Of a stretch of 64,000 bases of DNA, positions 1,663 to 63,904 are shown piece after piece. The stretch is from a virus, in the IMG/VR virus record IMGVR_UViG_3300023174_000124, positions 20,860 to 84,859 of that record, one strand, 5' to 3'. The position numbers and the translations under genes are program-made. The notes beneath the pieces are model-generated. The model saw only the letters and a list, made by a program, of their open reading frames with translations, was not told where the DNA came from and made no database searches. How positions within the stretch are numbered: position 1 is the stretch's first letter; the number at the start of each line of letters is the position of its first letter.

Positions 1663-2790
1663 CTATAATCTCTTTAAGAGAGATAAAATCTCTGATCTAA
1701 GGTCTTTATTGTTATAAGCCACCTTAATAGCATAAGTTATAAGGTGAGCTTTCTTATTTGTAGGTGATTTATTTGTAGGTGAAGGACTCTTAAAATTATC
1801 TCTTAAAGCATAAACATGATCTGCACCAGGTGTAACTAAAACTCTTTTACCTTGATCCTCATATTCTTTAATTTTCTTAATTATATTCTTACCCCTAAAG
1901 TCATTAGCATAATCCATAAGTTGAGATATCTTCTGTTCAGGTTTATTATAATCTCTAGGAAAAGTTAAAGCATATAATTTTTGAGCATCCTTTTTATTCT
2001 TAGGTGGGAATTTACCATCATAGCCATTATCTTTTAAAAATTTCTCACCCTCTTCTTGCATCTCTTTAGGTAATTCATTAAACCATTCCATCTCTTCTTT
2101 AATGTTATTCCCATGCCCTATATTTAAAGCTAATTGTAAAGTCATTCTCTCAGCTTCAGTAGTGCCTAAATCTTCTTTCATAGCTTTAGCAACAGCTGAG
2201 TTAGCCATACCTAATTGGTTATCTTTACCATCCCAAGTATCTGCTTTACCTCCTGCTTCTAAAACTAAATTCCCTACAAGTTCTTGTTCTCCACCTTCGG
2301 GATAATTATCTCCATCTCCCTGACCTCCTTCACCTAAGAAAACAATTTCTTTACCATCTTTTTTAGCTTGTTCTATAAAGTCTTTAACATTAGGTAATAA
2401 ACTCTTCTCTATCCAATCTTTAGAATCATCATCTAAGTGTTTAGTTCCTAGTAATTGACTACCTTGTGGAGTAGTAGCCATATAATTCTTTTTATATACT
2501 TCAGGGTTTTTAAATGACTCTTCTATTTCTTCATTAGAAAGTTGATTTTTATAGTCAGCTTTGATGTCTTTTAAATCTAATTTCTTTTTAGGTTTTTCTT
2601 TCTTAGTGGTTTCTTTTTTAGACTTCTCCCACTTGTCCCAATATTGTTTTAAAATTTGTTTATGACTGTCAAATTCTTCAGGTCTTAAAGATTTAAGTTT
2701 CACTTTATTTTTAGTTTCAGGGTTTATAACAGTTTCATTCTCAACAGCTTTCCAAAACTCATTAACATTGTCTTTTGAAAATTTCAACAT
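1663..2790 (-). CDS. Hypothetical protein, probable internal virion cargo (C-terminal AIKVAYNNKDLR tag)
   Basis: 375 aa; AAGGAG RBS; N-terminal INPETKNKVKL motif; C-terminal tag after KKA. Confidence 0.75.
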   Translation of the reverse strand: MLKFSKDNVNEFWKAVENETVINPETKNKVKLKSLRPEEFDSHKQILKQYWDKWEKSKKETTKKEKPKKKLDLKDIKADYKNQLSNEEIEESFKNPEVYKKNYMATTPQGSQLLGTKHLDDDSKDWIEKSLLPNVKDFIEQAKKDGKEIVFLGEGGQGDGDNYPEGGEQELVGNLVLEAGGKADTWDGKDNQLGMANSAVAKAMKEDLGTTEAERMTLQLALNIGHGNNIKEEMEWFNELPKEMQEEGEKFLKDNGYDGKFPPKNKKDAQKLYALTFPRDYNKPEQKISQLMDYANDFRGKNIIKKIKEYEDQGKRVLVTPGADHVYALRDNFKSPSPTNKSPTNKKAHLITYAIKVAYNNKDLRSEILSLLKRL

Positions 2791-2848
2791 AGCAAGACTC
2801 CTTATTTAATATAATATAAGCTATAAACTTCTTACAAAGGATTTCATT

Positions 2849-4736: not shown

Positions 4737-4775
4737 GATATAAACTCCTTTGAGGTTTTTTTATACTATACCAAC

Positions 4776-5388: not shown

Positions 5389-5392
5389 TTGA

Positions 5393-5707: not shown

Positions 5708-5724
5708 TTTATTATTCTTTCTTA

Positions 5725-13281: not shown

Positions 13282-14013
13282 TTAGGCATTTGGATTGTAA
13301 ACAGTACCGTCACTGTTATAGATAGCGATACAGTTATTAGCAACACCCTTATAGGTGAAGTTATCGGACAACATAACAGACAAAGCACCTTTAGCAGCAG
13401 ATACAGCAATATCACTAGCTAAGACACGATTATTCTTTTCACCTGAGAAGTAATCATCAATATCAATAACAGCGATAGGTGTAAAGATACCATCAGCATT
13501 TTGGACTTGATGACTTGCAGGAAGAGAGAAAACAGCACCTGTTAGAATAGCGAGAATATCAGCAAGTCTAGCAGTAGAAGATCTAAGACCGATACCATTA
13601 AGATCACCACCAGCAGTATTTGCTTGAATGATAGCATTAAGAGCAGCAGTAGTAAGAGTATTGCTTGTTTGCATACGAGCGATAATAGCGAGAGCGATAG
13701 CATTAGCTTCACTAGCGGTAAGTGCATGGTCATCATCAGTTAAAATATCAACATCTGGACCATCAAAGAAAGCACCACCAACGGTAGCGATAAGATAAGC
13801 AGCAAGACCACTAACATTATTTCTAATAGTTCTAGTATTACCATTAGAAGAAGTAGCAACGGTACTATTAGCAGGTTGTGTTAAATAGAAAGGACCCTGA
13901 GGATAAGCATCAATAACAGGGTTAAATTGAGAAGGGTTAGGAAACAAATCTCTAATTTGAAGAGTAGCATTAGGAATGTCATCTCTTGTAACAGTAATAT
14001 AAACGATAGCCAT
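13282..14013 (-). CDS. Putative virion structural protein (paralog of 14032)
   Basis: Ala-rich; RDDI..LQIxDL, YPQGPxYL, GLxAY and C-terminal CxxxYxxDGTV shared. Confidence 0.65.
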   Translation of the reverse strand: MAIVYITVTRDDIPNATLQIRDLFPNPSQFNPVIDAYPQGPFYLTQPANSTVATSSNGNTRTIRNNVSGLAAYLIATVGGAFFDGPDVDILTDDDHALTASEANAIALAIIARMQTSNTLTTAALNAIIQANTAGGDLNGIGLRSSTARLADILAILTGAVFSLPASHQVQNADGIFTPIAVIDIDDYFSGEKNNRVLASDIAVSAAKGALSVMLSDNFTYKGVANNCIAIYNSDGTVYNPNA

Positions 14014-14031
14014 TTTCTATATCTCCTATGA

Positions 14032-14766
14032 TTAAATATCGGCACTAGTGAAAACAGTGCCATCATTAAGATAGATGACACATAAAGGGTTACCATTCCC
14101 ATTAGCTGGGTGGTTAATACCATTTGGATTAACTTCTTGAAGAGAAGGAGTTCTATCAGCACCATAGGAATTAACCACATTGGTGTATTGATATAATTGA
14201 CCTGAAGCAAGACTTTCAACCCAAGCAGTATCTCCTGTTACAAGTCTTCTATCACCTGGAATAGGAAAATTAGAAGAACCTATAAGTAGAGGAACATGGA
14301 CACCACCATCTTCAATAGTGGTATTGGCAGAAACTACAAATTTCTCGCCAGATAATATCTTGATGAGATTTTCAACATCATCCCCATAATGATAATCTCC
14401 GTTAATATCTGCTTGTAAATCTGCTTCGAGGTTATCGAGGTCTTCAGCTGCATATGCTTTATTTACAATATATTCAGCAACTTCAATAGCTTGAGCTAAA
14501 GTTAAAGATGCACCATCATTATCCACTTGTGTAAGAACATAAGCAGTAAGACCTGTGGTTTGGAGAGCGATTTTAATATCGCCTCCAACTGATTTTAATC
14601 TTGGAGCAAGTCTTCCATAACTATTTACATCAATAGGTCTAAGATAGATAGGTCCTTGAGGATAAGGCTCAATGTGGCTTCTAGCTTGAGATTTATTGAA
14701 GTATAAGTCAGTAATCTGGACAGAACCTGCTTGAATATCATCTCTACGGACAACAATATAAGGCAT
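14032..14766 (-). CDS. Putative virion structural protein (paralog of 13282)
   Basis: Same conserved blocks; AGGAG RBS. Confidence 0.65.
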   Translation of the reverse strand: MPYIVVRRDDIQAGSVQITDLYFNKSQARSHIEPYPQGPIYLRPIDVNSYGRLAPRLKSVGGDIKIALQTTGLTAYVLTQVDNDGASLTLAQAIEVAEYIVNKAYAAEDLDNLEADLQADINGDYHYGDDVENLIKILSGEKFVVSANTTIEDGGVHVPLLIGSSNFPIPGDRRLVTGDTAWVESLASGQLYQYTNVVNSYGADRTPSLQEVNPNGINHPANGNGNPLCVIYLNDGTVFTSADI

Positions 14767-14829
14767 TTGAGAACTCCTATTATACTTATTACTAATACAT
14801 TAAAATATATAAATAAAATAAACTCTTTA

Positions 14830-15567
14830 TTAAGAGTGATTAACCATAGCCATTCTTACAGAGAATCTGACTTCACCTACAGTGCCACCCTCAGTAGCAG
14901 TAGGACTACAACCTACAATAATTTCAGGAGCACCACCACCTGTTAAACTGACTTCACTATAAGGTCTAATAATAGTAGGGTTTAGACCTGGATGGAAAGT
15001 AGTATATAATTCTTGGTCAGGGTCAAGATTAGTGATATTGATTGTATGAGAGAAGTAAGGAAGCATAATATCCATACAACCTGCACCCATAGTATCAGGT
15101 TCGGAAGCTAGGATAGGAGCATTACCTGTAAATGTAAAAATAGGGTGAGCAGTGGTGAAGAAATCGTAAGGAGGGACAGCAATAATCGGACCCCATTCGG
15201 AATAAGTAGTAGGGTTATGTTTATATCTACCTCTTAGGCGAACGAATAAAGATTCACCATCGGAAGGGATTCTAGTATCACCTGCGACATAAGTAGTAGC
15301 ATAGTCACCAAGATCAAAAACAAAACGAGTATTGTTTCTTTTAGATTCTTCAGGTTGTATTCTAGTAGTTTCAATAGCAGGTGATTGAAAAGAACCTCCG
15401 ACTCTGACTTCAAACATTAATCTAGGAGCATTAAAAGCAGTATTGACATTACTAGCACCTGAAACTTGAACGATATCAAAACCTCTGAGTAATTCATTAC
15501 GAATACTCATATCAATAAGACCTTTAGAACGATAATTAAAACTAGCGGCTAATCTACCTCTGGACAT
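14830..15567 (-). CDS. Putative structural protein (beta-rich)
   Basis: AAGGAG RBS; composition and context. Confidence 0.55.
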   Translation of the reverse strand: MSRGRLAASFNYRSKGLIDMSIRNELLRGFDIVQVSGASNVNTAFNAPRLMFEVRVGGSFQSPAIETTRIQPEESKRNNTRFVFDLGDYATTYVAGDTRIPSDGESLFVRLRGRYKHNPTTYSEWGPIIAVPPYDFFTTAHPIFTFTGNAPILASEPDTMGAGCMDIMLPYFSHTINITNLDPDQELYTTFHPGLNPTIIRPYSEVSLTGGGAPEIIVGCSPTATEGGTVGEVRFSVRMAMVNHS

Positions 15568-15627: not shown

Positions 15628-16011
15628 TTATTTGCTTTCTTTTTTCACTAGGTCATTATAGCTTTCAGTATTTTTACCTTTAGATTTAGCTAATTTTTGA
15701 GCATCTGACCAGGAATCTACTCTTTCACCATCGACATTGGGGACTAGAGTGACCCCTGGTGCTTCTTTTTTCATTTCATCTTGTTTAATGGTAGCTTTGC
15801 TTCTCCGAGCTTCCATTTGTTTTTTAATACGGCTATTTTTATCACCCCAATCATCGCCTTTAAACATAACTTGGGGCATAGCAGGTATTTTATTACATAT
15901 AGTATCTGGACCACAATCTAAACACACTTCAGGTGTAGAAGATTCTGACATTTTTTTAGTGACTTCAAATTCTAAATCGCACTTAGGGCATTGATATACA
16001 TAAGTAGGCAT
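15628..16011 (-). CDS. FmdB-family zinc-ribbon protein
   Basis: MPTYVYQCPKC..FE..CLDCG..FKGDDW. Confidence 0.85.
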   Translation of the reverse strand: MPTYVYQCPKCDLEFEVTKKMSESSTPEVCLDCGPDTICNKIPAMPQVMFKGDDWGDKNSRIKKQMEARRSKATIKQDEMKKEAPGVTLVPNVDGERVDSWSDAQKLAKSKGKNTESYNDLVKKESK

Positions 16012-17787: not shown

Positions 17788-18783
17788 TTAGATACCTTCT
17801 TGAACATAAAGACCTAAGTTATACTCACATTCAAAAGCAGTTCTAATTAAATTCAATCTAGCAGTTCTACTTTTAGTAAGACTCATGTTCATTATATTTA
17901 ATAATCTTTGTTTTTCTTTATCATCAGCTCTTAGTTTTTGTAGGTAATTAGCAGCACTTTCTCCATATTTATATCTATCACTTAACCACTTAGATAAATC
18001 TATAGTACTTTCTGATATATCTAACAAGGTAGCTAAGATTTTAGGTAAGACATTTGTGCCTGTATATTTAATAGCTTCTAATAGAAATTTGCCCCCAAAT
18101 TGAAGACCTTTCAATAGAAGTTCACCTGCTTGACCTAGACCTTTAAGGAGCATTTTTCCACCTTCTATTAAAACAGGAGTTCCTACTTCTATTGTTTTGT
18201 TTATACCTATAACAAGCCATTTATAACTAGTAGCTAATACTTTGCCTAGTATCACCCCTAAGTTTTTTATTTTCTTTAATCCTGAATTAAGTATTTTTTT
18301 AGCTTTTTTAGGGTTTTTATAGATGAGGTAAGTAATAATAAAAGCTACAATAAAACCTATAGCCCAGGGAGCATAAGCGGTTAGAGTAGCAATAAAAGGA
18401 GTTTGGTGGGCATTTTTTTGAAAGTGTTGAATTAGGGTCTTTTGTAAATCAGGTGGAAGACTGTCTATTAGTTTCTCGACTATTTTTTCATTTCCTTCTT
18501 GAGTCAATTTTGCCATTTCACTAGGACTTATATTTTCTTTAATTATATGATTAATATGAGAAACATTTAATTTGAGAGATTCAGACACAACAAATTCAGA
18601 AGCAAATTTATTGCTATAGTCTTTTCCAATTTCAGATACCCAAAACATTTCATCTGCTGAGTCAAGAGAGGATTTTTTAAAACTATTGTGAATATACCCA
18701 TATTGTAAACTAGCTTTTCTTAACTTATCTCCATTAGGTAGGTTGTAAGATTCCTTGATAAGTGTTCTTAGTATTTTGCTCAT
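17788..18783 (-). CDS. Membrane-segment-containing hypothetical protein
   Basis: TM WAIGFIVAFIITYLIY; LLKG repeats; terminal LIKESY/LIRTAF motifs. Confidence 0.7.
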   Translation of the reverse strand: MSKILRTLIKESYNLPNGDKLRKASLQYGYIHNSFKKSSLDSADEMFWVSEIGKDYSNKFASEFVVSESLKLNVSHINHIIKENISPSEMAKLTQEGNEKIVEKLIDSLPPDLQKTLIQHFQKNAHQTPFIATLTAYAPWAIGFIVAFIITYLIYKNPKKAKKILNSGLKKIKNLGVILGKVLATSYKWLVIGINKTIEVGTPVLIEGGKMLLKGLGQAGELLLKGLQFGGKFLLEAIKYTGTNVLPKILATLLDISESTIDLSKWLSDRYKYGESAANYLQKLRADDKEKQRLLNIMNMSLTKSRTARLNLIRTAFECEYNLGLYVQEGI

Positions 18784-19663
18784 TATTACTAACTCCTATG
18801 TATTTTAGTATAGGTTTAATAATAGAGAAAATAAAATTTTTAATCTTCTTGTAAGACCACCCAATAAGTCTAAATAAGTCATTAATAAGAGCAAAGAAAC
18901 CCCCACCTGCCATAAGTATTATTTTCTTAGGCACACTCCCCCTAGCTCTATTACTGCCAAATAAGAATAACATAACAAGTTGAGCAAGATATTGTTTTGT
19001 AGTCATTTCTGTGGATGCCCAAGCAGCTAGATACATAGGCAAAGTTATTTTTGTAGCTATGAGATTAAGTAAGAATGGGATAGCTACTATAACTAATGCT
19101 AGTTTCCTATCATTAAGATCAACAACATAATTTAAACTATCTTTGATAACTTCCGACCCTGGTATTAAAGACATGACATCTCTAGTTTTACCTTGAAGTA
19201 GTTCTTTTTTAGTAGGTTTAGTAAATAGGATACCTGTTTTTTTCTTAAGTTCACTAGTGCTGTCTGCTACTAGGATTTCAAACAAGTAATGAATTAAGTC
19301 TGATGTGTCGGTGAATTTTTTTAAGGTGTCTCTAAATTTCTCTGCAAATTCCGTTTTAGGTTCTCTAAAACCTTCTTCTTCTATATAGTCTAAGAAAGCA
19401 GGGAAATTTAGATTAACAGACCCATCACCTTTTGTCTCAAACGCTTCCCAAGCACCTGAGAAAAACTCATATGCACCTGAACCTAATAACTTATCAAGAT
19501 CGAATTTTTTAATAAAAGAATTTGCCCATACCTCTAAAAGTTTCTCTTTCATCTTAAAAGGAATGGACTTAGATAAGACTTCTTGTTCAGCTAAAGTCAT
19601 ATCCTTATTTTCAAAGGCTCTTCTTATCATAGCTCTTTGAATATAAGCTCTTTTATTTAACAT
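18734..19663 (-). CDS. Multi-TM hypothetical protein
   Basis: C-terminal hydrophobic segments; N-terminal RAYIQRAMIRRA. Confidence 0.7.
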   Translation of the reverse strand: MLNKRAYIQRAMIRRAFENKDMTLAEQEVLSKSIPFKMKEKLLEVWANSFIKKFDLDKLLGSGAYEFFSGAWEAFETKGDGSVNLNFPAFLDYIEEEGFREPKTEFAEKFRDTLKKFTDTSDLIHYLFEILVADSTSELKKKTGILFTKPTKKELLQGKTRDVMSLIPGSEVIKDSLNYVVDLNDRKLALVIVAIPFLLNLIATKITLPMYLAAWASTEMTTKQYLAQLVMLFLFGSNRARGSVPKKIILMAGGGFFALINDLFRLIGWSYKKIKNFIFSIIKPILKYIGVSNNEQNTKNTYQGILQPT

Positions 19664-20658
19664 AATCTTTCCTCAAGCATTCTATAAAACACTGGATTAT
19701 ATGAAGCAAGTTTTATAGCTTCGGATAAAACTTCTTGTTTTCTATCAAATAGAGATAAGGTTTTATTCTTAGCCCAGTCATATCCTTTAGAGATATTTAG
19801 AGAGAGGTCTTTAAGAACATCAGATATTTTATTGTAGGCTAATTTCAGGTGAGGAATTAATCTAGCAATAAGAACAGCTGGGATAACTGTAGTCGCAATA
19901 CCAAATTTTTTAACAAGATTGGCTGTTGTATCGACATCTGTTAAAATCGCCATCAATAATATACTACCTATCATAGGCATTAAATGTAAAAGAACACCTA
20001 CTACAGGAGCACCGAATAAAAACACTTTTACAAGAATGACTTTACTTAAAGCAAAAAGACCATTAACAGCAAAAAATTTAGTGTTGTCTAAAAATAAGAA
20101 TGCCTCATTAGAAGATTCTGTTAGGTCTATACTTTTTTCTATTTGTTTATTCATTAGAGATTCTTGTTTTAAAATATCTCTTACTTCCAATAAAGACACT
20201 TTTGTCAAGGATGCAATTTCTTCTGGAGTTTTAGCAGCTATTAATTGACTTGTGAATCTAAATAAAGAATAGATGTCTTTACGATTCACAAAAGTATTTA
20301 AGATTTGAACAATAGCTTTTTGAATGATGTTTACAGGTTTTTTTAATTTGGCACTTACAATGTTTTTACCATTAAAAAGTCCTTTTTCTACTATATAGTT
20401 TTTAACAATATCTACATTCTCTCTTACTGTAGAAGTTACATCATTTTTTACTTGATCTAGGTGAGCAACTAAAACATCAAATTTTAATTTTTCTTGTTTC
20501 TCTTCAGGTAGAGATTCGATTAACTCAGGTGTAATATCCATAGCATTAGCTTGTTTAGTGTTTAAACACATTAAACAAGCTCTTCTAAGGTTTTCCCCAC
20601 CTTTAACTTTGAAACTCATTCTATACAAATCAGAGATAATATTCGCTTTATTTTTCAT
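19657..20658 (-). CDS. Multi-TM hypothetical protein; paralog of the C-terminal two-thirds of 20655
   Basis: Near-identical N- and C-terminal blocks at protein and DNA level. Confidence 0.75.
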   Translation of the reverse strand: MKNKANIISDLYRMSFKVKGGENLRRACLMCLNTKQANAMDITPELIESLPEEKQEKLKFDVLVAHLDQVKNDVTSTVRENVDIVKNYIVEKGLFNGKNIVSAKLKKPVNIIQKAIVQILNTFVNRKDIYSLFRFTSQLIAAKTPEEIASLTKVSLLEVRDILKQESLMNKQIEKSIDLTESSNEAFLFLDNTKFFAVNGLFALSKVILVKVFLFGAPVVGVLLHLMPMIGSILLMAILTDVDTTANLVKKFGIATTVIPAVLIARLIPHLKLAYNKISDVLKDLSLNISKGYDWAKNKTLSLFDRKQEVLSEAIKLASYNPVFYRMLEERLC

Positions 20659-21620
20659 AATCTTTCCTCAAGCATTCTATAAAACACTGGATTATATGAA
20701 GCAAGTTTTATAGCTTCACTTAAAACTTCTTGTTTTCTATCAAATAGGGACATAGTTTTATTTTTAGCCCAATCGTAACCTTTAGAAATATTTAGAGCTA
20801 TGTCTTTAAACACATCAGAGATTTTATTGTAGGCTAATTTTAGGTGTGGGATTAATCTAGCAATAAGAACAGCTGGTATGACAGAGGTTGCGATACCCAT
20901 TTTTTTTAAGAAATTAGCTGTTGTTTTAGAGTCTGTTAAGATAGTCATTAATAGAATAACAATAAGGACAGGAACTAGGTGCATTAAAGCACCTGTAATA
21001 GTAGCCCCTAGAAACACGACTTGTATTAAGACTACTTTAAGTAAACTCATAGAACAATTAACAGCAAAAAATTTTAAATCATCCATACCCATAATAAAAG
21101 AAACCATTTTTTCACTTTTTTCACCTAAGCTATTTAAAGGTATCTCTTTTTGTATTTCTGAAACAGGCACTTTGATTAAGTTAGCTACTTCTTCAGGTGT
21201 GTCTGCTGCTATTAAAGCACTCGTAAATTTTAACAAAGAATAAGGGTCTTTTTTTTGAGCAAAAGAATTTAAGATTTGAATAGTAGCTTTTTGTTGAATA
21301 TTAACAGGTTTTTTTAGTTTCATACTCAAAAGGTTTTTACCATTAAAAAGACCTTTTTCATCTAAATAGGATTTGATAATATTAATGCTCATCCCAATTT
21401 TAGAACTTATGTCATTTTTTACTTGATCTAGGTGGGCTACTAAAACATCAAATTTTAATTTTTCTTGTTTCTCTTCAGGTAGAGACTCAATTAATTCAGG
21501 TGTGATAGTCATAGCACTAGCTTGTTTAGTGTTTAAACACATTAAACAAGCTCTTCTAAGGTTTTCCCCACCTTTAACTTTGAAGCTCATTTTATATAAA
21601 TCTAGTATAAGATTTGCTTT
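19661..21620. repeat. About 1-kb tandem duplication
   Basis: cataatctttcctcaagcattctataaaacactggattatatgaagcaag at 19661 and 20656; tttaaacacattaaacaagctcttctaaggttttccccacc near 20561 and 21532. Confidence 0.85.
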
Positions 21621-22079
21621 CTTTTTCTTAGCGAGACTCATTTTAATTTCTTCCTCGTTTTCTTTCTTCCATTTTTTCCATTTAGCATATGAAGGACTAT
21701 TAGGTTTACTAGGGTCATGTCCCCAGTTTCTTAATGAGATTTCCCATTTACTCATACCTGTAGAACCAACAGGTTTACCAGGATTTCCACCGAGCATACG
21801 ACCATTAAACCCATTTTCTTGACTAGCATTATCAAAATCTTGTGCAGACCAATCTTCAAATGGTTTATCTTTTCTTCTCTTAATACGATGAAAGGAATCA
21901 TAACCTGATTGTATTTTCCCATTTTGTTTAGCTTCTTCTCTATTTAAAGATGCTTCAAGATGGTCAGGGTCTTTGCCCCAATCTTTTAATTCTTTTTCAG
22001 ACATATTGATAAGACTCTTCCACTTATCATATATCTCTTTTTTTTCATCATCAGATCGTTCTTTAGCGATGTGTTTCAT
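20655..22079 (-). CDS. DUF3140-like domain fused to multi-TM domain
   Basis: WKSLINMSEKELKDW...SLRNWGHDP (DUF3140-like), then KKKKA junction and a 19657-like unit. Confidence 0.7.
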   Translation of the reverse strand: MKHIAKERSDDEKKEIYDKWKSLINMSEKELKDWGKDPDHLEASLNREEAKQNGKIQSGYDSFHRIKRRKDKPFEDWSAQDFDNASQENGFNGRMLGGNPGKPVGSTGMSKWEISLRNWGHDPSKPNSPSYAKWKKWKKENEEEIKMSLAKKKKANLILDLYKMSFKVKGGENLRRACLMCLNTKQASAMTITPELIESLPEEKQEKLKFDVLVAHLDQVKNDISSKIGMSINIIKSYLDEKGLFNGKNLLSMKLKKPVNIQQKATIQILNSFAQKKDPYSLLKFTSALIAADTPEEVANLIKVPVSEIQKEIPLNSLGEKSEKMVSFIMGMDDLKFFAVNCSMSLLKVVLIQVVFLGATITGALMHLVPVLIVILLMTILTDSKTTANFLKKMGIATSVIPAVLIARLIPHLKLAYNKISDVFKDIALNISKGYDWAKNKTMSLFDRKQEVLSEAIKLASYNPVFYRMLEERL

Positions 22080-30079: not shown

Positions 30080-30640
30080 TTAAAATCTTCTCTTTCTAAG
30101 TGAAGCCATTACTTGACGACCCTCAGGAGTGATTTCATTATCTACCATAAGAGCAGACCTACGAATTAAATATCCATTGTATTTTTCATACCACTTACTA
30201 TAAAATTCTTTACCATCGACTATTCTTACTGTTTCTTCAGGGTCAGGTATATTTGAGTCTGCTACATATACATCATACCCACCACCCTCTTTACCTACAA
30301 CATCAAATATTAAAGAAGCATGACTCCATTCACGACCTTCTGGGTTCCACCCAATAAGTACAGGTTTACCTGCATCTGTCCATTCTTTAACTTGCTTTAA
30401 TGTTGCAGGTGTAACTAAAGTCCCTCTACAACCATAATGTTGAACACAAGCTAATACTGATTCCCAAGATGCTCCTGTCATTGGTCTCGCACCTATAACT
30501 TCATTCACCTCATCTTCATTACATTTAACACCTAAAGCATTTAATGCCATAGCTGTTGATGCAGCTACACATGAAAATTGTGTTCTTTGTCTGATCGGAT
30601 TCACATTAGCTTTCGCTATTCTTCTATTAAACCCATACAT
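30080..30640 (-). CDS. Papain-like cysteine peptidase (C39-like)
   Basis: QRTQFSC (Gln, catalytic Cys), WSHA (His), VADS (Asp). Confidence 0.8.
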   Translation of the reverse strand: MYGFNRRIAKANVNPIRQRTQFSCVAASTAMALNALGVKCNEDEVNEVIGARPMTGASWESVLACVQHYGCRGTLVTPATLKQVKEWTDAGKPVLIGWNPEGREWSHASLIFDVVGKEGGGYDVYVADSNIPDPEETVRIVDGKEFYSKWYEKYNGYLIRRSALMVDNEITPEGRQVMASLRKRRF

Positions 30641-30698
30641 CTTTATATGCTCCTGTAATAAGTTCTTTTTACCTTATAGAAAAATTATTAAAACACTA

Positions 30699-30727
30699 TT
30701 GACAACACTGGGCTTTGTGTGTATAAT
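30699..30727 (+). promoter_or_regulatory. Consensus sigma70 (early) promoter
   Basis: TTGACA-17-TATAAT upstream of AAGGAG and ORF 30759. Confidence 0.85.
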
Positions 30728-30758
30728 ACAAACATACTAACCCTAAAGGAGTCAAACA

Positions 30759-31751: not shown

Positions 31752-31773
31752 CCTAGAAATGATACAAACACAC
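31740..31773 (+). promoter_or_regulatory. TTGACA box plus copy of the 15-bp motif
   Basis: TTGACA at 31740; atgatacaaacacac at 31759-31773. Confidence 0.5.
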
Positions 31774-31805
31774 TAAATGCGTACCCTTAAAAAAAAGGAC
31801 AAAAA

Positions 31806-52391: not shown

Positions 52392-54569
52392 ATGAGTTAT
52401 TTAGATGACCCAAAGCTACAACAGACGATAGCTAAATTAAGAGAAATTAGAACAAGAGAAGAATTAAAAGCACCAGCTAGTAAGATCTTAAGAACCACTA
52501 TGCCTAATGGTAAACCTTTAACTCTCAGAAACTATCAAGTTCAAGGTATTATGCACCTCCTAGCTATGCCTAGATTCGTTCTTGGCGATGATACCGGGCT
52601 TGGCAAGTGTGTGACAGGCGATACTCTTATTAAGACAAGTAAGGGTTTACTTGAAATTTCAAGTCTCAACCCTAATATCACAGAAGCAGACACCTTTGCT
52701 CCTTTACAAGAACCCTTAGATGTGATTGTAAGGGGAGAAAAAAGACCTATAAAGAGTTTTTATTATGGTGGTGTAAAACCTACTATTAAAATTCAAACAA
52801 GATATGGCTATGAAATTGAAGGGTCACAAGTTCACCCCGTCTTAGTCCGTCAAAAAGACGGCACGGAACAATGGGTGAGATTATCTGAAGTTAAAGAAGG
52901 CGATTTCATTTGTATTGATAAGTGTCCTAACCCTTTCTTTAAAGAAACACCCTATACTTCTATACAAACAGAAAAAGAAGCTAAGACACAACAAATCATT
53001 TTACTTTCTCATGGTTTAGTCTCTTTTAGAGATGGTTTAAATGTCTTTAGTATACAAGAAACAGATACTAATCATTATTTTTATGACCCTATTGTTAAAA
53101 TAGAATCCTCTGAAAAAGAAGTTTTTGATATTGAAGTAGACCACCCTGAGCATTCCTTTGTAGGTAATGGTATCACTAGCCATAACACTTTGCAGACGAT
53201 TTCTGCCTTAAGCTACCTATGGGATAAATACCCTGAAACACCTGTTGTCATTATGACTACTAAATCTGCACTTAATCAATGGGCAAGTGAATTTGATAAA
53301 TTCACCACAGGTGTTAAATGCTTTGTTATCAGTGGCACTAAAGCTAAAAGACAAAAAGTCTATGATGAGTTCTTTGCCTATACAGGTCTTAAAGCTCTGA
53401 TTATGGGTTATAGAACTGCTTGTATGGACTTCGATATCCTACAAAACTTAAAAGGTCATGTTCAAGTCTTTGATGAAGCTACTGCCTTTAAGAATGAAAC
53501 TACACAAGTTCACCAAGTTTGTGCTCACCTTAGTGGTGCTGCTCAAAAAGTATGGTCTCTCTCTGCTACTATTATTAAAAATAGACTTATGGAAGCATGG
53601 GCTATTTATAGAGTTACTGTCCCAGGTCTTATGCCTAGTAAAAATGTCTTTATGTCTAACTATTGTATCTGTGTAGATAAACAAATAGGTAGAAAGAGAA
53701 TTAAATTCGTTGTAGGTCATAGAAAATCAGATATTGAAGCTTTTAGAATTAAAATCGACCCTTTCTTTATCGGTAGACCTAAACATGAAGTAGCTCATGA
53801 ATTACCACCTTTAACCACTAAGAGAATTGAAGCTCCTTTATCGGATGTTCAAATCTCTAAGTATAAAGAAGCACTTAGTGGTATTTTAGAAAAGTATGAT
53901 CCTACTACAGGTGAAATGACAGAAAAAGAAGTAACTAAACTTACAGCTGTTATGTATTGTCAACAAATTGTAAACCATCCTGAACTTGTAGATGTTAAAG
54001 GCGATAGTGGTAAATTAGAAATTCTAATGGAATTACTAGAAGAAGAATTTGATGGTGAGAAAGTCATTATTTTCTCTAGGTTTAGAAAGATGATTGATAT
54101 TCTCGATAGGGAACTTTCAGCTAAGGGGATTAAGTGTGTAAGAATTACAGGTGGAGAGAAAGATGATGAGAGAAAGAAATCTCAAGAGTCTTTCCAAGAT
54201 GAAAAATCAGATGTTAGAGTGGTGTTGATTACAATGGCGGCGGCAGAAGGTGTTAATCTCCAACTTGCTAAAGCTACTATTTTCTATGATAGTCCCTGGT
54301 CAGCAGGTGATTACCTACAAATTATCGGTCGTATGATTCGTATCGGTAGTATTCATGATCGTGTATACTGTTATCACTTAGTATGTCCTAAGACAGTAGA
54401 TGACAGAGTTATGAAAGCCTTACATAATAAAATGGATTTAATTGAAAATGTTTTAGGAAAAAGGCTCAAGAACGATGAGGAATCAGATAAAATAATAGGT
54501 GTATCAGAGAACGAATTGAAAGATATTTTCAATGATTTAGTAGAGGATGCTAAAGAAAATGCCAGATAA
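52392..54569 (+). CDS. SNF2-family helicase/ATPase containing an intein
   Basis: LRNYQ, DDTGLGK/T, DEAT, KVIIFSRF, EGVNLQ, QIIGRMIRIG. Confidence 0.92.
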   Translation: MSYLDDPKLQQTIAKLREIRTREELKAPASKILRTTMPNGKPLTLRNYQVQGIMHLLAMPRFVLGDDTGLGKCVTGDTLIKTSKGLLEISSLNPNITEADTFAPLQEPLDVIVRGEKRPIKSFYYGGVKPTIKIQTRYGYEIEGSQVHPVLVRQKDGTEQWVRLSEVKEGDFICIDKCPNPFFKETPYTSIQTEKEAKTQQIILLSHGLVSFRDGLNVFSIQETDTNHYFYDPIVKIESSEKEVFDIEVDHPEHSFVGNGITSHNTLQTISALSYLWDKYPETPVVIMTTKSALNQWASEFDKFTTGVKCFVISGTKAKRQKVYDEFFAYTGLKALIMGYRTACMDFDILQNLKGHVQVFDEATAFKNETTQVHQVCAHLSGAAQKVWSLSATIIKNRLMEAWAIYRVTVPGLMPSKNVFMSNYCICVDKQIGRKRIKFVVGHRKSDIEAFRIKIDPFFIGRPKHEVAHELPPLTTKRIEAPLSDVQISKYKEALSGILEKYDPTTGEMTEKEVTKLTAVMYCQQIVNHPELVDVKGDSGKLEILMELLEEEFDGEKVIIFSRFRKMIDILDRELSAKGIKCVRITGGEKDDERKKSQESFQDEKSDVRVVLITMAAAEGVNLQLAKATIFYDSPWSAGDYLQIIGRMIRIGSIHDRVYCYHLVCPKTVDDRVMKALHNKMDLIENVLGKRLKNDEESDKIIGVSENELKDIFNDLVEDAKENAR
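52608..53186 (+). mobile_element. Intein (193 aa) in the Walker A motif
   Basis: GK|CVTGDT...HPV...VFDIEV..HSFVGNGITSHN|T. Confidence 0.92.
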
Positions 54570-57077: not shown

Positions 57078-57608
57078 ATGAGTATAAGATCAGATAGGAT
57101 AAAGAAGGCAGTACCTTTAGATAAGTTATTAAAGGATTATGGTTATGATATATATTTGAATGGGTCGGATCAGCAATTTAAGTGTGATTTGCATGGTAGT
57201 GGTAGAGATAATAAACCAAGTGCGAGATATTATCATAGTACACAGACATGGTATTGTTTTGCTTGTGGTAAGGTGAGAGATGTAATCTCAACAACAATGG
57301 AAAAGGGAGGGTTAGAGTATAATGATGCTTGTAGGTATTTAGAGAAAAGATATGATATAGGAGAGTGGGTAGAAAAGAAATCTATATTAGATAATGAAGA
57401 GAGATATGAAATAGAAGAGAATATAGATTGGCAGAAGAGGGTGGTAGTGAGATTAAAATCTTTGGTGAAAGATAGATTAATAAGTTTGGATGCTTCGTTA
57501 AAATTTTGGGAAGCGATTGATATTTTAATGGTAAATAATAATACTGAAGAGAGTAAATGGAAAAATATATTTGATAAGTTAGAGAGTATAGCAAATGATA
57601 GAAGATGA
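57078..57608 (+). CDS. CHC2 zinc-finger (primase zinc-binding) protein
   Basis: CDLH..DNKPS..WYCFACG..DVI..Y.DA..YL. Confidence 0.85.
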   Translation: MSIRSDRIKKAVPLDKLLKDYGYDIYLNGSDQQFKCDLHGSGRDNKPSARYYHSTQTWYCFACGKVRDVISTTMEKGGLEYNDACRYLEKRYDIGEWVEKKSILDNEERYEIEENIDWQKRVVVRLKSLVKDRLISLDASLKFWEAIDILMVNNNTEESKWKNIFDKLESIANDRR

Positions 57609-57951: not shown

Positions 57952-58379
57952 TGTATCGAGAGAATGGGTTTATATTTATACATATAACAGACAAGTCATA
58001 TGGTAATCCTAAGATAGCGAGGATATTACAGAGAGATGAGCATGATAGTTGGGGTGAGTATAAAACATTAGAGGGAACAGAGATAGGTGATTTAATAGGA
58101 TTGGTTAAGGAATCTGATGTCGATAGGGCGATGAGGGGAGATGCAAGTGGGGTGATGAAATCGGGGGTGAGAGAACCTAAAGGGTGTTTAAAGAAGATAA
58201 AGAGGAATAGTGTATGTGAAGATAGTAAGACTTGTTTAGCCTATGATGAGAGTAAATGTGATTTTAAATTAAGAGGGTGTCCTGATTGTTTTGTGGTAGG
58301 GGGTGATTTAGGGGAATTAGAAAAGAGGGTGATAGATGCTTGGAGAAAAGGCTATATGGTGGTGAGGGTTATTTTTTAG
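57948..58379 (+). CDS. Hypothetical Cys-containing protein
   Basis: Six Cys in the C-terminal half; ATGA overlap. Confidence 0.7.
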   Translation: MMYRENGFIFIHITDKSYGNPKIARILQRDEHDSWGEYKTLEGTEIGDLIGLVKESDVDRAMRGDASGVMKSGVREPKGCLKKIKRNSVCEDSKTCLAYDESKCDFKLRGCPDCFVVGGDLGELEKRVIDAWRKGYMVVRVIF

Positions 58380-59436
58380 CTTTAGCTTTATTAGATTCCC
58401 GAATTAATTCTTCTACGAACTCTTCGGATTGGAATATTTTTTCAGCTTCAACTTGGTTTTGAAGTTGTTTTTTTAGCATACGGATATTAACAAGTTGAGA
58501 TGGGGTATCATCTTCAGCAGCTAATTTCTTATTTGAAGATTCAAAGAAAGAATTTAATTTTCCATTTTCATAAGAACCATTTTCATTCTTTTTGAAACCC
58601 ACTGAAGTTAGGGCTTTTTCAATACCTGGTTTTACTTTCTCTTTATATTCTTTTTCAATTTTTTCTATTTCTCCAAGAGCTTTTTCAGGAGACATTTTAC
58701 CTTTAAAGATAGAATCTTCAATATCAGAGACTTTTTTAGCATACTCTTTATTGATTTTATTGGGAGTGTATTTTCCTAAGAGAATATCCATAGACACATC
58801 TGAGATGTCTTCTTTTTCTTCTATTTTCTTTTTTCCTCTATTCTCTAGTGCTTTTTTGGCAACAACAGTGGTTGCAGAAGCTAATACGACACTTGCTAAA
58901 CTCACACCTAAACCTGCACCTCCCGTTGCAAGACCTAGTGTAGCTAGAAAAATAGGTTTAGTTACAAGATAAGTAGACATCCCTGCAAGATTGCGAGAGA
59001 AACTTGTTCTGTCGTTAATTACTTTTGCTGCACCTTTAACTTCTTTAGGTAGTTCTTTCATTTCACTTGTGAAATTAATATTTCTCGTCACAAAATCAAC
59101 TTTAGAAGCAATTTGATCTCTTTGTTTTTTTTCTTCTTCTGCGGATTCCGCAAAACCTTCATTAAAAGTAGATTTTAATTTAGTGGATTTTTGTTTAATT
59201 TTAGCAAGAATATCACCTTTAAGTTTTTTATCTTCAGGTGAAAGTTCTTTTTTTGCCTCACTTTTAGAGTTCTCTTTAACCGAGTGATTCTTGGGGTCCG
59301 CATTCGGATGGTCTTTAAGATATTGTTGAAGTTCTTCTTTAGAAGAGAACTCCATAGCACTTTTAATCATGGGGATTAAAATAGGTCTTAGAGATGGATT
59401 ATTATAAGCTAATTTCACAGCATATTTTTTAGACAT
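58369..59436 (-). CDS. Probable internal virion protein with Gly-rich hydrophobic hairpin
   Basis: N-terminal AVKLAYNNPSLRPIL tag; LATLGLATGGAGLGVSLASVVLA. Confidence 0.75.
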   Translation of the reverse strand: MSKKYAVKLAYNNPSLRPILIPMIKSAMEFSSKEELQQYLKDHPNADPKNHSVKENSKSEAKKELSPEDKKLKGDILAKIKQKSTKLKSTFNEGFAESAEEEKKQRDQIASKVDFVTRNINFTSEMKELPKEVKGAAKVINDRTSFSRNLAGMSTYLVTKPIFLATLGLATGGAGLGVSLASVVLASATTVVAKKALENRGKKKIEEKEDISDVSMDILLGKYTPNKINKEYAKKVSDIEDSIFKGKMSPEKALGEIEKIEKEYKEKVKPGIEKALTSVGFKKNENGSYENGKLNSFFESSNKKLAAEDDTPSQLVNIRMLKKQLQNQVEAEKIFQSEEFVEELIRESNKAKAKK

Positions 59437-59442
59437 AGTAAG

Positions 59443-59495: not shown

Positions 59496-59501
59496 TCAAA
59501 A

Positions 59502-59708: not shown

Positions 59709-59709
59709 G

Positions 59710-60360
59710 ATGAATAAAGATGCAGGTTTAGTGGATAATCCACTTTTACTACCCACTTTGTTGGGAGTTATTAAGTTATATCAGAGTTTAAACAAAAATT
59801 TAAGTCCTCAAATAATAAAGCAATATAACATTTTATTTTCTGCAGCAGAAGATAGTGTTATGAAATACGATGAGAATTTTAGTTTAAAAGGAGATGAAGG
59901 CATAGACATTAAAGTTGTCAGTATGTTGAAACTTGCTTTATTAAACTTAAAAAGATTTAATGCTATATTAGAAGATTTTCAAGAAGTATCTCAAACAGGA
60001 TATTCCATCTATACCGAATTAACAAAAAGAAAAAGATTTGCATCTAATCAAATCCCTTTATTAGAACAATCTTTAAAGAGAATGGTGAACTTATACGATA
60101 TGATTTCAGACGATCAAATCTTTAGTGAACCTAATCTTAGAAAGTTAAAAACTAATTGTACTAAATTATCAAATTTTCTTGAACCTCATATAGAAGTAGC
60201 AAATGAAAATTTAAGTTTCTTTTTTGAAGATAGTGCAAGTTTAATAGGGGATTTAAATGTTGCTTTAAATTCTATTGACCGAAAACAACCAGGTATGTTT
60301 ATTGTGTCTTATCAAGCTATGGAAATGCTTGAAGATTTAAAAAGTAAAATCTTTATGTAG
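59710..60360 (+). CDS. Hypothetical helical protein
   Basis: Starts MNKDA; internal KRFA splits two halves. Confidence 0.7.
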   Translation: MNKDAGLVDNPLLLPTLLGVIKLYQSLNKNLSPQIIKQYNILFSAAEDSVMKYDENFSLKGDEGIDIKVVSMLKLALLNLKRFNAILEDFQEVSQTGYSIYTELTKRKRFASNQIPLLEQSLKRMVNLYDMISDDQIFSEPNLRKLKTNCTKLSNFLEPHIEVANENLSFFFEDSASLIGDLNVALNSIDRKQPGMFIVSYQAMEMLEDLKSKIFM

Positions 60361-63300
60361 TATATTTTTCTTTAAGTCTCTTTTTGGTGATGTCTTTAGT
60401 CAATTCAAAAGAAGTTTTATCTAATGGTTTCTTACCCTTAAAGGTCTTTTGAATATCTTTATTTTTAAAACTTTTTAACTTTTTTTTGTCTATTTCTTGT
60501 TTTAAAGTTAATCCTATAATAGAAACTTTCATTTGTTGTAGTAAAGGTGTTTTATTTTCTTCTTCACTTGCCATTTTGAAATGTCTCTTATGTTTTTCTA
60601 ATCCTTCTACTTGTTCACTTTCTTCATCTCTCCTACCTTGTAAGTATAGGCTTCTAAACATAGCGACTTTAGTTATCATTTCATATTCTTTGTGAATATC
60701 GTGCATTTCTTTAATTACTTGTTCTCTATTATTACTTTCATCATAAACACTATGCCCTTCTTCTTCTGCTTCTTTTGCTTTTTCATAAAGTTCTTCCATC
60801 TCTTCTAATTCTTTTTTGTCTATATTTTTCTTTTTTAAGAGTTTTATAATTTTATCTACTTGACCTTCTCTTAAATCAGCAAGAGCTTCTATTTTACCTT
60901 TTTTAAGTTTTTCACATAAGGGTTTATAATTATCATCTCTTGTGAGAATGGTATAGAACTTAGAATTTTCACTAAAAAGTTGTTTAGCTTTAGAGGATGC
61001 TTCTTTTCTTTTTACTCCTCTAAGTTCAGCTGTAATAGGAACTTCTTTTTTATTTTTTCCATAAAACATACCCTCTTCTTCTATAGTAGTAGTCTGACCT
61101 CTATATTTATCAGCCCATTGTTCATCTGTTAATAATGAGTCTTCTAGTATTTGTATTCTCTTTCTATATTTTTCTTCTAATTCTTTGGGTGTTTTGTCTT
61201 CATTATATAATTCTTGGATGAGTTTTTCTTTGGGGTCATCAAATAGAGCATAGTATTTTTCTTCAAAAAAACTTTCAATAAATTCACCTGCTAGGTACAT
61301 CGAACCTGCTTTGATAACACCACCTGCAAGATTACCTACTTGGTCAGCCAAGAAATCTACGGATTCATGGTCAGCTAAAAAACTGAGCCCTCCCATTTTA
61401 TCTGCTATACTACTACTTAAATCAGAGATTGAATTGAGTCCTTCACTTAGGAGATGAGAGCCTTTTAAAAAGTAATCCATAACATCGCCAATTTTACCTG
61501 CTTTATGAAGTTCATCTATCATAGAAGCTATTAATTTAGGTTGTTCTTTACTTGCCATCTCTAATAAAGATGCAATATTCCCTGTCTTTCCTAATTGTTT
61601 ACTTAAAAATTCCGTTGCTAGTTTCTCAATCTCTGAATTACCAATAAGGGCAGAACCTAGTTCTTTAACACCCTTTGAAATACCTATTGTACTCAAATCT
61701 ATTACTCTATCTGGAATTTTTTCACCTAAAAAATCACTAACAGGTTTCTCTAAAGACCCCATAATAGATGATCGAATAACATCATATAAAATATTTCCTT
61801 TATTTCCAGCTGACATCTCATTAAGTGAAGATATCATTTCTTCTTTCTTTTCTTCTAATTTTTTTACTGCAAGTTCTCTTTTCTTTTTAGCTTGTTCCGA
61901 TAATTTAGATATCATTCCATCTTGTGCTATTTGAGAATCAGAACCTAAATCAGATTCACTTTCAAGCGACTCTTTTTTAAAAGCATCTTTTAATGATGCC
62001 ATAAGTACTTTTGAAGTCTTCCTATTACTATCTCTTACTTCTTTATTTACATTTTGTACATATTTCTCATCTAAATAACTATCTATCTCGCTTATAAAAT
62101 TTGATATGTCAGGGACAAGACCTAAAGATACTCGATCAAATATTTCTTCAATCTCATACTTACCTAGCTTATGTTCTTTTTCAGATTGTTTTTTTGCAAG
62201 TCCCTTAAGAATAGCTTCTCTTTTTTCTATTAGTCTTTCTTTTTCATCTTCATCTGATGTTCTTTTTATCTCTTGACTAATATCAAAAACTTCATTTATT
62301 TTTTTCTTTAAATAGTCTTTCTCTTTTTTCTTAAGTTCTAAGAAAGAATCTTTAGCATTATATTCTGTTTTTATAGAATCATCTAAAGAAGATAATATGT
62401 GAGTATCTCCACTTAATAATGTTTCACCTTGACTTTCTATCGCGGCTATTACTAATTGCTGTTTTTGTTTTTCTTCTTCATCTTCAAGATTTTGAATTAC
62501 CTTTTCTACTCTTTCTTTTTCTTCATTCAAAATATAATTTTCTTGTGTCTTTTTTTTATTGAGGAGTCTCTTTATTTTTAATTTAATCCGTTTTTTTTCT
62601 AATGCTCCCATATCATCAGTTATTTTTGACCTAAGATTTTCAATCTCTCTTCCATTTTCACTTAAAGTATCAAAAATCTTTAAATCTATATCTTCTATAT
62701 GCTTTTTATTAACCAATTTTTCAAATTGTTCTTCTACTACACTTTCTTTCTCTGTTTCTTCCGCTTCAGTAAAAGAATCTACCATCTCCTTATAACTTTT
62801 TTTAATACTCTTTTTGTTGTATGCCATATTTGACCACTCAGTGGCTCTTATTAGAGAACTTGCCCACTGCTCCTTCACTTCCACCATTTTCTTACTTCCT
62901 CCTAGAATACTTCCTAAAATAGAATCTCCTATTTTTTTTACTCCTGATAGCTCTTCATATCCTGCAACATTATTCATTCTATTTTGAACCACTTCGGACA
63001 TCTTACTCACTGTTTTCTCTAAAACCATATTTACAGCTTCTTCATCTTCTTCACTCAAATCTAATTTCTTCACAAATAACTCACCATCTATTTCTTGTAT
63101 ACTTCTCTCCATATAATCTATTATTCTATCCACTTTCATATTTATTCTTTTTTCTCTTATTTGATTAAATTTTTTCTTATCTTGTCTTTTACCCTGTTCT
63201 ATTTCTTTTTCTTTCAAAGACTCTTCGGTCTCTTTTTTCTCTTTATCTACCTTGTCATAATCTTCTTTAAATTCAGGGTATAACTTTTGAACCAATTTCG

Positions 63301-63904
63301 TAGCATCATTTTTTAACTTATTATTTCCTGAATTATAATAAGATTGATAAGTTGAAAATAATACTTCTTTCCCTTCCTCTCTCAATGAAGGATACTTTTT
63401 CTCCCCATACTTATTCTTATGCCAATCTATCATTAAATCCCATGTCTTTCTTGGTATGTTCCCTTTCTCTACAGATTCTCTTTCTTCAGCATACGCTTTC
63501 TTTAATATTCCCAATAAAGATTTTCTTAATCCTTTATTCTCATAAGCTATCTTTATTAAATCCTCCAAAGGAATTTCCATATTGTCTTTTTGAAATTCTA
63601 CATATGCTCTCTTTATAACTCCCTTAGCTTCTTTTTTAACTTCCACATCTTTACTTTTATAGTAGTTAATATAAGTATCAAACCCCACTTTCTTACCTTC
63701 TAAGAATAAACTAGGATACTTTAAATTACCACCATACTTCTCTTTGTGCCATTCACCTAATTTCTTCAAGACCCCTCCACTAAACTCCTCTCTACTTAAA
63801 GCCTTCTTATAATTAGTTTTTATTATAGGCAATAAATACTCTCTTGATTCTTTATTCTCAAAAGCATATTTAATCATTTTTCTTATTAAATTACGACTGC
63901 TCAT
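60353..63904 (-). CDS. Large Lys/Glu-rich protein, probable internal head/ejection protein
   Basis: Duplicated N-terminal unit (tag plus WHKxKYG..KYPSL..EGK); 1183 aa. Confidence 0.75.
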   Translation of the reverse strand: MSSRNLIRKMIKYAFENKESREYLLPIIKTNYKKALSREEFSGGVLKKLGEWHKEKYGGNLKYPSLFLEGKKVGFDTYINYYKSKDVEVKKEAKGVIKRAYVEFQKDNMEIPLEDLIKIAYENKGLRKSLLGILKKAYAEERESVEKGNIPRKTWDLMIDWHKNKYGEKKYPSLREEGKEVLFSTYQSYYNSGNNKLKNDATKLVQKLYPEFKEDYDKVDKEKKETEESLKEKEIEQGKRQDKKKFNQIREKRINMKVDRIIDYMERSIQEIDGELFVKKLDLSEEDEEAVNMVLEKTVSKMSEVVQNRMNNVAGYEELSGVKKIGDSILGSILGGSKKMVEVKEQWASSLIRATEWSNMAYNKKSIKKSYKEMVDSFTEAEETEKESVVEEQFEKLVNKKHIEDIDLKIFDTLSENGREIENLRSKITDDMGALEKKRIKLKIKRLLNKKKTQENYILNEEKERVEKVIQNLEDEEEKQKQQLVIAAIESQGETLLSGDTHILSSLDDSIKTEYNAKDSFLELKKKEKDYLKKKINEVFDISQEIKRTSDEDEKERLIEKREAILKGLAKKQSEKEHKLGKYEIEEIFDRVSLGLVPDISNFISEIDSYLDEKYVQNVNKEVRDSNRKTSKVLMASLKDAFKKESLESESDLGSDSQIAQDGMISKLSEQAKKKRELAVKKLEEKKEEMISSLNEMSAGNKGNILYDVIRSSIMGSLEKPVSDFLGEKIPDRVIDLSTIGISKGVKELGSALIGNSEIEKLATEFLSKQLGKTGNIASLLEMASKEQPKLIASMIDELHKAGKIGDVMDYFLKGSHLLSEGLNSISDLSSSIADKMGGLSFLADHESVDFLADQVGNLAGGVIKAGSMYLAGEFIESFFEEKYYALFDDPKEKLIQELYNEDKTPKELEEKYRKRIQILEDSLLTDEQWADKYRGQTTTIEEEGMFYGKNKKEVPITAELRGVKRKEASSKAKQLFSENSKFYTILTRDDNYKPLCEKLKKGKIEALADLREGQVDKIIKLLKKKNIDKKELEEMEELYEKAKEAEEEGHSVYDESNNREQVIKEMHDIHKEYEMITKVAMFRSLYLQGRRDEESEQVEGLEKHKRHFKMASEEENKTPLLQQMKVSIIGLTLKQEIDKKKLKSFKNKDIQKTFKGKKPLDKTSFELTKDITKKRLKEKYTT

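Follow-up and report, generated by a model that had tools for sequence, protein, structure and literature searches.

Portable peptides that address proteins to a capsid are known from phage T4 and from the encapsulins. The capsid-targeting sequence (CTS) of T4, common to the internal proteins IPI-III and Alt, is about 10 residues long, strictly N-terminal, and is cut off by the prohead protease after a Glu. Encapsulin cargo-loading peptides are terminal and address unrelated proteins to one partner, the interior of an HK97-fold shell, and the cargo genes usually lie beside the shell gene. Both types of peptide are already in use for engineered cargo loading. The P22 scaffolding protein carries a coat-binding helix-turn-helix at its C-terminus. 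Huge phages are almost all uncultured, and the majority of their genes have no known function. Polyvalent proteins are found in phages and in conjugative elements, and those of phages have been argued to be packaged (Iyer et al. 2017, PMC5512222). The element described here is a peptide tag of about 23 residues that recurs on five otherwise unrelated proteins encoded within 64,000 nucleotides of viral DNA (hereafter the window), corresponding to bases 20860–84859 of the single 84,859-base IMG/VR record IMGVR_UViG_3300023174_000124. The tag is new to the literature and libraries searched: it has no match in Pfam, PHROGs or PDB, and is not described in the literature covered.

The record has a GC content of about 31% in the window and a CheckV completeness of 27%. 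A 272,726-base contig also encodes proteins identical to window-encoded ones, and together with the low completeness this identifies the record as a fragment of a huge phage. The source phage is uncultured, huge and myovirus-like.

Eight strong copies of the tag are present in five proteins, all encoded on the minus strand, and they occupy the places given in an earlier, model-made reading of the bases (the original prediction). Their common form is [LIVA][IV][KR]xAYxN[PK]xxRxxIL. A 375-aa protein (1663–2790), rich in Lys and Glu and of no recognised family, lies just upstream of a conserved 458-aa gene and ends in a C-terminal copy at 1669–1746 (…YAIKVAYNNKDLRSEILSLLKRL-stop; independent domain E-value, iE, 1.9e-10, and 0.013 with a profile free of window copies; the remaining values in this paragraph are from the window-free profile). 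The 1402-aa protein (22127–26335; 32% K+E, family not recognised) has two copies near its N-end, the first at residues ~8–27 (26240–26329, iE 4.8e-4) and the second at residues ~38–57 (26150–26239, iE 1.1e-3). Both ends of the 713-aa protein (26388–28529) are tagged, at residues ~26–45 (28383–28469, iE 5.2e-4) and with a C-terminal copy that runs to the stop codon (26391–26465, iE 3.8e-4); three Gly/Ala-rich hydrophobic segments are found in this protein. The 355-aa protein (58369–59436) begins with a copy at residues 4–26 (59347–59436, iE 2.7e-7), after which come another conserved module (the second module), a linker and a body that contains a single hydrophobic segment. The fifth carrier, of 1183 aa (60353–63904; 29% K+E, family not recognised), has a copy starting at residue 9 that is the weakest of the eight (63806–63892, iE 0.09) and another at residues 113–140 (63485–63568, iE 2.7e-3), the one case in the window of a copy over 40 aa away from an end. 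No recognisable domain was found in any of the five carriers, and Pfam, PHROGs, PDB sequence searches and the ESM Atlas returned nothing on the function of their bodies.

A profile made from the eight copies and run over six frames of the whole record is a circular test; its next match after the eight was the N-end of the protein at 18734–19663, with a whole-protein E of 0.05. The non-circular control was a profile of 23 copies, all from other phages, compared with 1,302 six-frame segments of the 84.9-kb record. Its top eight matches were exactly the eight window copies (iE 2.7e-7 to 0.09), and the ninth had an iE of 4.2. Several weaker copies had also been listed originally, and these were not significant: the C-terminal LIKIALSSKPEIKNII of the 22127 protein gave domain iE values of 86 and 43 in two scans, AIKLASYNP of 19657 and 20655 gave 1.7–20, and LIKESYN of 17788 gave 0.09 with a profile of the variant dialect described below. 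Statistically unsupported, tag-like ends of this kind occur in four neighbouring basic proteins with hydrophobic segments (17788, 18734, 19657 and 20655; 17788–22079, minus strand).

Identity among the window copies is 42% for protein and 54% for DNA. Different codons are used at 84 of the 235 positions with an identical amino acid (36%), so that conservation is on the peptide and not on a DNA repeat. A BLAST comparison of the nine carriers named in the original prediction returned the tag regions (21–34 aa), a paralogy between 19657 and 20655, a weak N-terminal match of 24% between 22127 and 60353, and nothing else. Similarity among the carriers is thus essentially confined to the tag, bearing out the proposal of a portable tag placed at either end of unrelated proteins, and the same pattern reaches far beyond the window. 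Distances from copy to nearest terminus are 2, 7, 37, 25, 1, 5, 9 and 115 aa, and five of the eight copies lie within 60 aa of the N-end. When copies were placed at random within their own proteins, the sum of distances was as small in none of 200,000 trials, and the probability for the maximum distance was 8e-5. As had been noticed originally, the tag is absent from the tail and replication genes of the record; no copy was found in the sheath, polymerase, helicase, primase or tail-like genes.

In relatives with a GC content of 50–60%, the consensus is LRxxLIRLA[H/Y]xNPELRxxLLPLL, and the window version (K for R, I for L, Y for H) appears to be a low-GC version of this peptide. The eight-copy window profile gave 2, 9, 7, 0 and 16 matches in related IMG/VR records of 74–288 kb. 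A 31-copy profile run against 1.84 billion representative proteins matched 3,574 at E ≤ 1e-3 and 284 at E ≤ 1e-10; ten of the matched proteins were looked up, and these came from metagenomes only, with no NCBI source, two of them being named 'hypothetical protein'. A strict degenerate DNA pattern of the canonical tag matched 13 times, in 10 viral contigs of 52–485 kb, with no matches in 185,579 bacterial and archaeal genomes. Among 50,697 GenBank phage records the tag was found in one, the uncultured 485-kb record LR745208.1. This genome encodes 11 tagged proteins with one tag each, 10 at the N-end and one internal. In 10 of the 11 an ATG lies 2–4 codons before LRSK…, giving the start M(T)TLRSKLIRLAH…, and the bodies, of 119–588 aa, show no evident likeness outside the tag when compared by eye rather than by all-against-all BLAST. 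The 11 tags are 80% identical as protein, with different codons at 563 of the 1,014 identical residues.

Placement was tabulated for eight related records, in which 43 proteins hold 56 copies. Of these copies, 41 are N-terminal, 7 C-terminal and 8 internal; the N-terminal class includes copies with a Met no more than 8 residues upstream of the tag even if the longest open reading frame was longer. Carriers with a single copy had it at a terminus in 31 of 32 cases. A second sample comprised the 341 copies in the best 150 of the 3,574 profile matches, all of which are multi-copy proteins. In this sample, 116 copies begin no more than 15 aa from the N-end, 51 finish no more than 10 aa before the C-end, and 161 are separated from both ends by over 30 aa. 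Of the 150 proteins, 132 had one or more terminal copies, and 35 were tagged at both ends. Terminal enrichment, proposed originally as a check, is therefore evident in the window and in single-copy carriers, but about half of the copies in multi-copy proteins are internal. Likewise, the statement that the motif occurs only near termini is correct for the window (seven copies at 1–37 aa, one at 115 aa) but not elsewhere.

In proteins built of several modules, the internal copies stand where one module borders on the next. In a 1238-aa relative, ParB-like regions (ParB match 22.3 bits, under the Pfam cut-off of 23.6), tags and the second conserved module alternate. No known domain was detected in 106 of the 117 carriers scanned; other carriers in relatives have GNAT (e.g., P0013), WGR, pentapeptide-repeat, DUF2958, DUF7717, zinc-ribbon or Fusello-VP2-like DNA-binding domains. 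Most carriers are small single-domain proteins. Some consist of little more than tags and charged linkers, namely P0132 (63 aa, two tags), P0023 (three), P0021 (three) and L017:2543-2890 (115 aa, one tag at each end).

The second module (59272–59358, minus strand; AMEFSSKEELQQYLKDHPNADPKNHSV) directly follows the tag in the 58369 family, as …EFSSKEELxxYLKDHPNADPKNHSV…, in the window and at loci L004 and L008-L014. Within this family it is 76–97% identical, versus 22–78% for the tag. Of the top 150 tagged proteins 17 have it, directly after a tag in 15 cases, and it is also present inside proteins of 2805 aa; it has no Pfam match. The N-terminal tag is retained in homologues of the 58369 protein, the more distant of which carry there the variant …LIRLASSLPxGSxERRAILAGL….

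The tag is predicted to be a helix, an N-P turn and a second helix, spanning about 23–25 residues. In an AlphaFold2 (AF2) model of the 58369 protein, built on an alignment of nine sequences (mean predicted local distance difference test score, pLDDT, 64), the tag forms a helix at 3–12, a break at N-P and a helix at 14–29 (pLDDT 62–69), followed by a helix of the second module, low-confidence residues 51–65 and then the body. Modelled from its single sequence, P0132 gave four helices, 6–16/18–29 and 37–50/55–62, with a mean pLDDT of 85 and a predicted template modelling score (pTM) of 0.64; the five models ranged from 80 to 85. A Foldseek search with the P0132 model returned no significant neighbour (best E 5.7).

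Two proteins serve as markers of the phage clade in which the tag is found. The first is a 290-aa major capsid protein (MCP) of the HK97 family (L044:10139-11011, L043:9769-10644, L038:7919-8794), matched by more than 2,000 clusters (90% identity) at E ≤ 1e-10. Among the matches listed, the best 120 share 90% or more identity with the query, on contigs of up to 527 kb. The second is the 458-aa protein of the window (88–1464, minus strand), which has an invariant CxC…CxxC-GxG motif and 907 homologues at E ≤ 1e-5 (45–97% identity, contigs up to 518 kb), with no match in Pfam, PHROGs or PDB; its gene is syntenic with the sheath gene in LR745208.1. The MCP is unusually invariant, other core proteins of the same phages being only 40–60% identical. 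The head module of LR745208.1 includes a tagged 134-aa gene, flanked by a protease-like gene and the MCP gene (phrog_2522, E 2e-47). Another tagged gene is ~6 kb away, and only two of the 11 tagged genes are within ~8 kb of the MCP gene. A corresponding role for the tagged 375-aa gene of the window, as a core scaffold upstream of the MCP, was considered and rejected: there is no counterpart at that place in LR745208.1, and the neighbouring 458-aa product is a sheath-syntenic zinc-motif protein for which an MCP identity is not supported.

The tag occurs in more than one dialect. The 288-kb record G004 has no tags of the NPELR type and 12 copies of the variant, mostly MPKSLTASDRSxLIKLASSLxKGSxERKAILAGLKK at residue 8, with one protein carrying copies at both ends. 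No variant copies were found in LR745208.1, and record G008 holds both dialects. Six closer relatives, which are 70% identical to the window phage in the 458-aa protein and include a 316-kb record rated as 100% complete (G010), have neither dialect. A third dialect in this tag-free lineage was considered, as four small genes of G010 (L077, G010:C1:149800-152400) have products starting MFTQRQRLSRLASLRK… (also written MFTQRQRLSRLASLRKSRLASLRK…), but a profile finds only those four in the 316-kb record and two of them are paralogues, indicating a local family.

Taken together, the tag is a portable label on unrelated protein bodies, kept by selection at the protein level, mostly terminal and confined to phages. 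It very probably serves as an address that a common partner reads. Under the proposed mechanism, one clade of uncultured huge phages adds the tag to accessory proteins that evolve fast, at either terminus or where modules meet, and in several carriers it adjoins charged, probably flexible sequence. One partner would read it, and this partner may be part of the assembling head, in the prohead core or inside the shell. In that case the capsid would take up the tagged proteins, and these would leave it with the DNA, as T4 internal proteins do by means of their CTS. This capsid destination is the leading reading, by analogy with the logic of the T4 CTS, and is suggested also by the tagged gene of the head module, by some carriers that look polyvalent, DNA-binding or membrane-active, and by the phage-only distribution. 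The portable-tag part of the original prediction is well founded, and the evidence for the capsid as its destination and for the analogy to the T4 CTS is circumstantial; a portable docking tag that includes this destination is put forward as a tentative proposal, somewhat less likely than not to be right. The composition of the window proteins is compatible with it. Six of the nine carriers and candidates are basic with Gly/Ala-rich hydrophobic segments, and the other three are 26–32% Lys+Glu; an isoelectric point (pI) above 9 with Gly/Ala-rich hydrophobic segments, as found in window carriers, is frequent in ejection proteins.

The likeness to the T4 CTS lies in a short peptide that is common to unrelated, fast-evolving accessory proteins, nearly identical between carriers and, in the eight related records, mostly N-terminal (41 of 56 copies). 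The tag differs in its length of ~23 residues and predicted two helices, in its C-terminal (7/56) and internal (8/56) copies, in having no defined cut site, although a protease-like head gene is present in relatives, and in having no apparent similarity to the T4 CTS in sequence; packaging is established for the T4 proteins and putative for the tagged ones. Like the encapsulin peptides, it is a portable terminal peptide that would address unrelated proteins to one partner, and the MCP of the clade is of the HK97 family, but tagged genes are scattered rather than next to the shell gene, with one in the head module of LR745208.1 and none in those of G003 and G005. The resemblance to P22 scaffolding protein is one of predicted fold: both have a small basic helix-turn-helix at a protein end, and multivalent tag-only proteins would resemble minimal scaffolds. 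However, the 430-aa and 220-aa genes, which adjoin the MCP gene where a scaffold gene would be expected, are untagged, and tag-free relatives hold an MCP of the same family. A few carriers in relatives are long chains of effector domains (ParB-like, GNAT, WGR, DUF2958), the kind of polyvalent protein predicted to be packaged and injected (PMC5512222), but the tag is unmentioned in the passages of that article covered here, matches no Pfam LPD family, and is mostly found on the small, single-domain proteins noted above.

Several observations weigh against a capsid destination. No cultured phage among the 50,697 GenBank records has the tag, and no carrier is known from a purified virion. About half of the 341 copies in multi-copy proteins are remote from both ends. 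No protease cleavage site is defined at the tag; the flank shows a weak K-x-A preference only (K 43%, A 35% among the 341 copies), and the [KR]xA separator that the original prediction placed between tag and body is not upheld. Most tagged genes are scattered, over 15–433 kb in LR745208.1, and have replication genes as neighbours as often as structural ones. The conserved head genes (protease, 430-aa, 220-aa and MCP) have no tag. The tagged 134-aa gene is missing from the same head module in G003 and G005. The MCP of G004, which uses the variant dialect, is 83–85% identical to the MCPs of phages with the main tag, which are 89–92% identical to each other; co-variation of MCP and dialect was dropped as an argument on these values, with too few genomes and the G003 row excluded from the comparison. 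The absence of both dialects from the six closer relatives comes from a search that recovered all eight copies in the window record as its control. Moreover, two of the six, among them the complete record, encode an MCP that belongs to the same family (622 bits against its profile), with no match in the other four, all fragments. The tag is therefore dispensable for building the capsid, and the MCP shows no correspondence with the tag. A search of the six tag-free records for the tagged 713-aa protein (26388) returned no homologue.

The tag might instead dock on a hub outside the virion, such as a host or phage chaperone, an unfoldase, a protease adaptor, a membrane site or a replication compartment, and so control the location, timing or turnover of its carriers. 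Adaptor- and degron-type peptides are typically terminal, as are most copies here; tagged genes often stand beside replication or early-looking genes, and whether a phage has the tag does not depend on its MCP. Nevertheless, the 23 conserved residues and two predicted helices are far more than known degrons need, and proteins made of tags and linkers only are hard to explain as substrates. A phage-encoded ClpX was rejected as the reader: the ClpX zinc finger PF06689 was found in none of five records, including the 485-kb genome, against 11 of 14 known genomes in the positive control, a result that speaks to phage-encoded ClpX only. A hub of this type appears rather unlikely.

Tags could also bind each other, with hairpin pairs forming a four-helix bundle, so that multi-tag proteins would cross-link single-tag clients into an inner head body or a cytoplasmic factory. 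Self-association of this kind could go together with capsid loading. Proteins of tag and linker only (P0132, P0023, P0021 and L017:2543-2890), the 35 of 150 top proteins tagged at both ends, and the four predicted helices of P0132 (mean pLDDT 85, pTM 0.64) are in keeping with self-association, but AF2 tends to pack amphipathic helices of the same chain regardless, and the model lacks a significant structural neighbour. All 11 carriers in LR745208.1 have a single tag and could form dimers at most. Overall, self-association seems unlikely.

A C39-like (papain-fold) peptidase is a core gene of the clade (30080–30640, minus strand; Pfam Peptidase_C39_2, E 8.6e-8), and in the window it heads the minus-strand string of genes that includes the tagged 713-aa and 1402-aa genes; its homologue in G005 is 3 kb from a cluster of tagged genes. 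The tag could on this basis be a leader or propeptide that the peptidase removes, as in double-glycine bacteriocin leaders. However, no Gly-Gly is seen beside the tags or in the tag logo, and C-terminal and internal copies are unlike a leader. The peptidase is 50–76% identical in 10 of 11 related records, tagged or not (there is no match in the 36%-complete G002), and is present in all six tag-free records at 75–76% identity, so it was rejected as a tag-specific processor and processing of this type is very improbable. Finally, although Lys/Glu-rich carriers and a GC content of 31% could mimic a motif, a chance match, low-complexity artefact or DNA repeat can be dismissed, given the ranking of exactly the eight copies by an independent profile, the different codons at 36% of identical residues, and thousands of homologous copies in phages of 50–60% GC.

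With the capsid retained as the leading candidate destination, the tag may be part of a genome-wide address system, in which a label with lineage-specific dialects (NPELR, LPxGSxERR, none) and one co-evolving reader would load a changing arsenal of enzymes, DNA-binding and membrane-active proteins into the capsid for co-injection. This broader scheme is more speculative than the docking tag itself. A shared label would sort part of the dark proteome of huge phages into one functional class without a function for each protein, and would offer a practical way to trace the machinery on which tagged proteins depend. The dialects and the tag-free sister lineage amount to a natural experiment for finding the reader by comparative genomics. 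If the capsid destination is true, this would be a natural and modular way for a very large-headed virus to package proteins, similar to the T4 CTS and encapsulin peptides, and the tag's action at either end, independent of the body, would make it a ready-made packaging tag for protein delivery.

Most of the other window proteins have no Pfam or PHROG match. The gene content recognised by these libraries includes a DnaB-like helicase, pieces of a primase, an intein-bearing SNF2 helicase and the C39-like peptidase, and no capsid, portal or terminase genes were found in the 84.9-kb fragment by Pfam, PHROG or profile scans. Outside the window, the record encodes a family-A DNA polymerase and a 1615-aa tail-sheath protein (G000:C1:13772-18619). 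Sheath similarity of the latter is confined to the last ~350 residues (phrog_2839, E 2e-30), and LR745208.1 encodes a 1665-aa homologue that is 41% identical. The SNF2-family helicase (52392–54569, plus strand) has an intein at residues 120–265 (Pfam Intein_splicing, E 2e-10). The primase is apparently split, its Toprim catalytic and CHC2 zinc-ribbon parts being in separate plus-strand genes, 34525–35211 and 57078–57608, which are 22 kb apart.

On the minus strand, three adjoining acidic proteins of ~244 aa and a zinc-ribbon protein are encoded at 13282–15567 and 15628–16011. In the homologous string of G003, a tagged 149-aa gene is inserted between the zinc-ribbon gene and the first ~244-aa gene. 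The paralogues noted above (19657–20658 and 20655–22079, minus strand) are in tandem and 69% identical over 331 aa; their C-ends are nearly identical, as is the DNA upstream of the next gene. No homologue of 20655 was found in five related records.

The divergent intergenic region at 30641–30758, and also 31752–31805, has sigma-70-like TTGACA…TATAAT sequences, recognised by eye only, which face the plus-strand genes at 30759–33104. The sequence CTTTATAWA occurs 17 times across the window, versus 7.2 expected, and none of 100 shuffles reached 17. It was rejected as a promoter common to tagged genes, as the sites are not specific to them. Several are just upstream of genes (1491, 7753/7756, 9180 and 63929) and may belong to a phage promoter.

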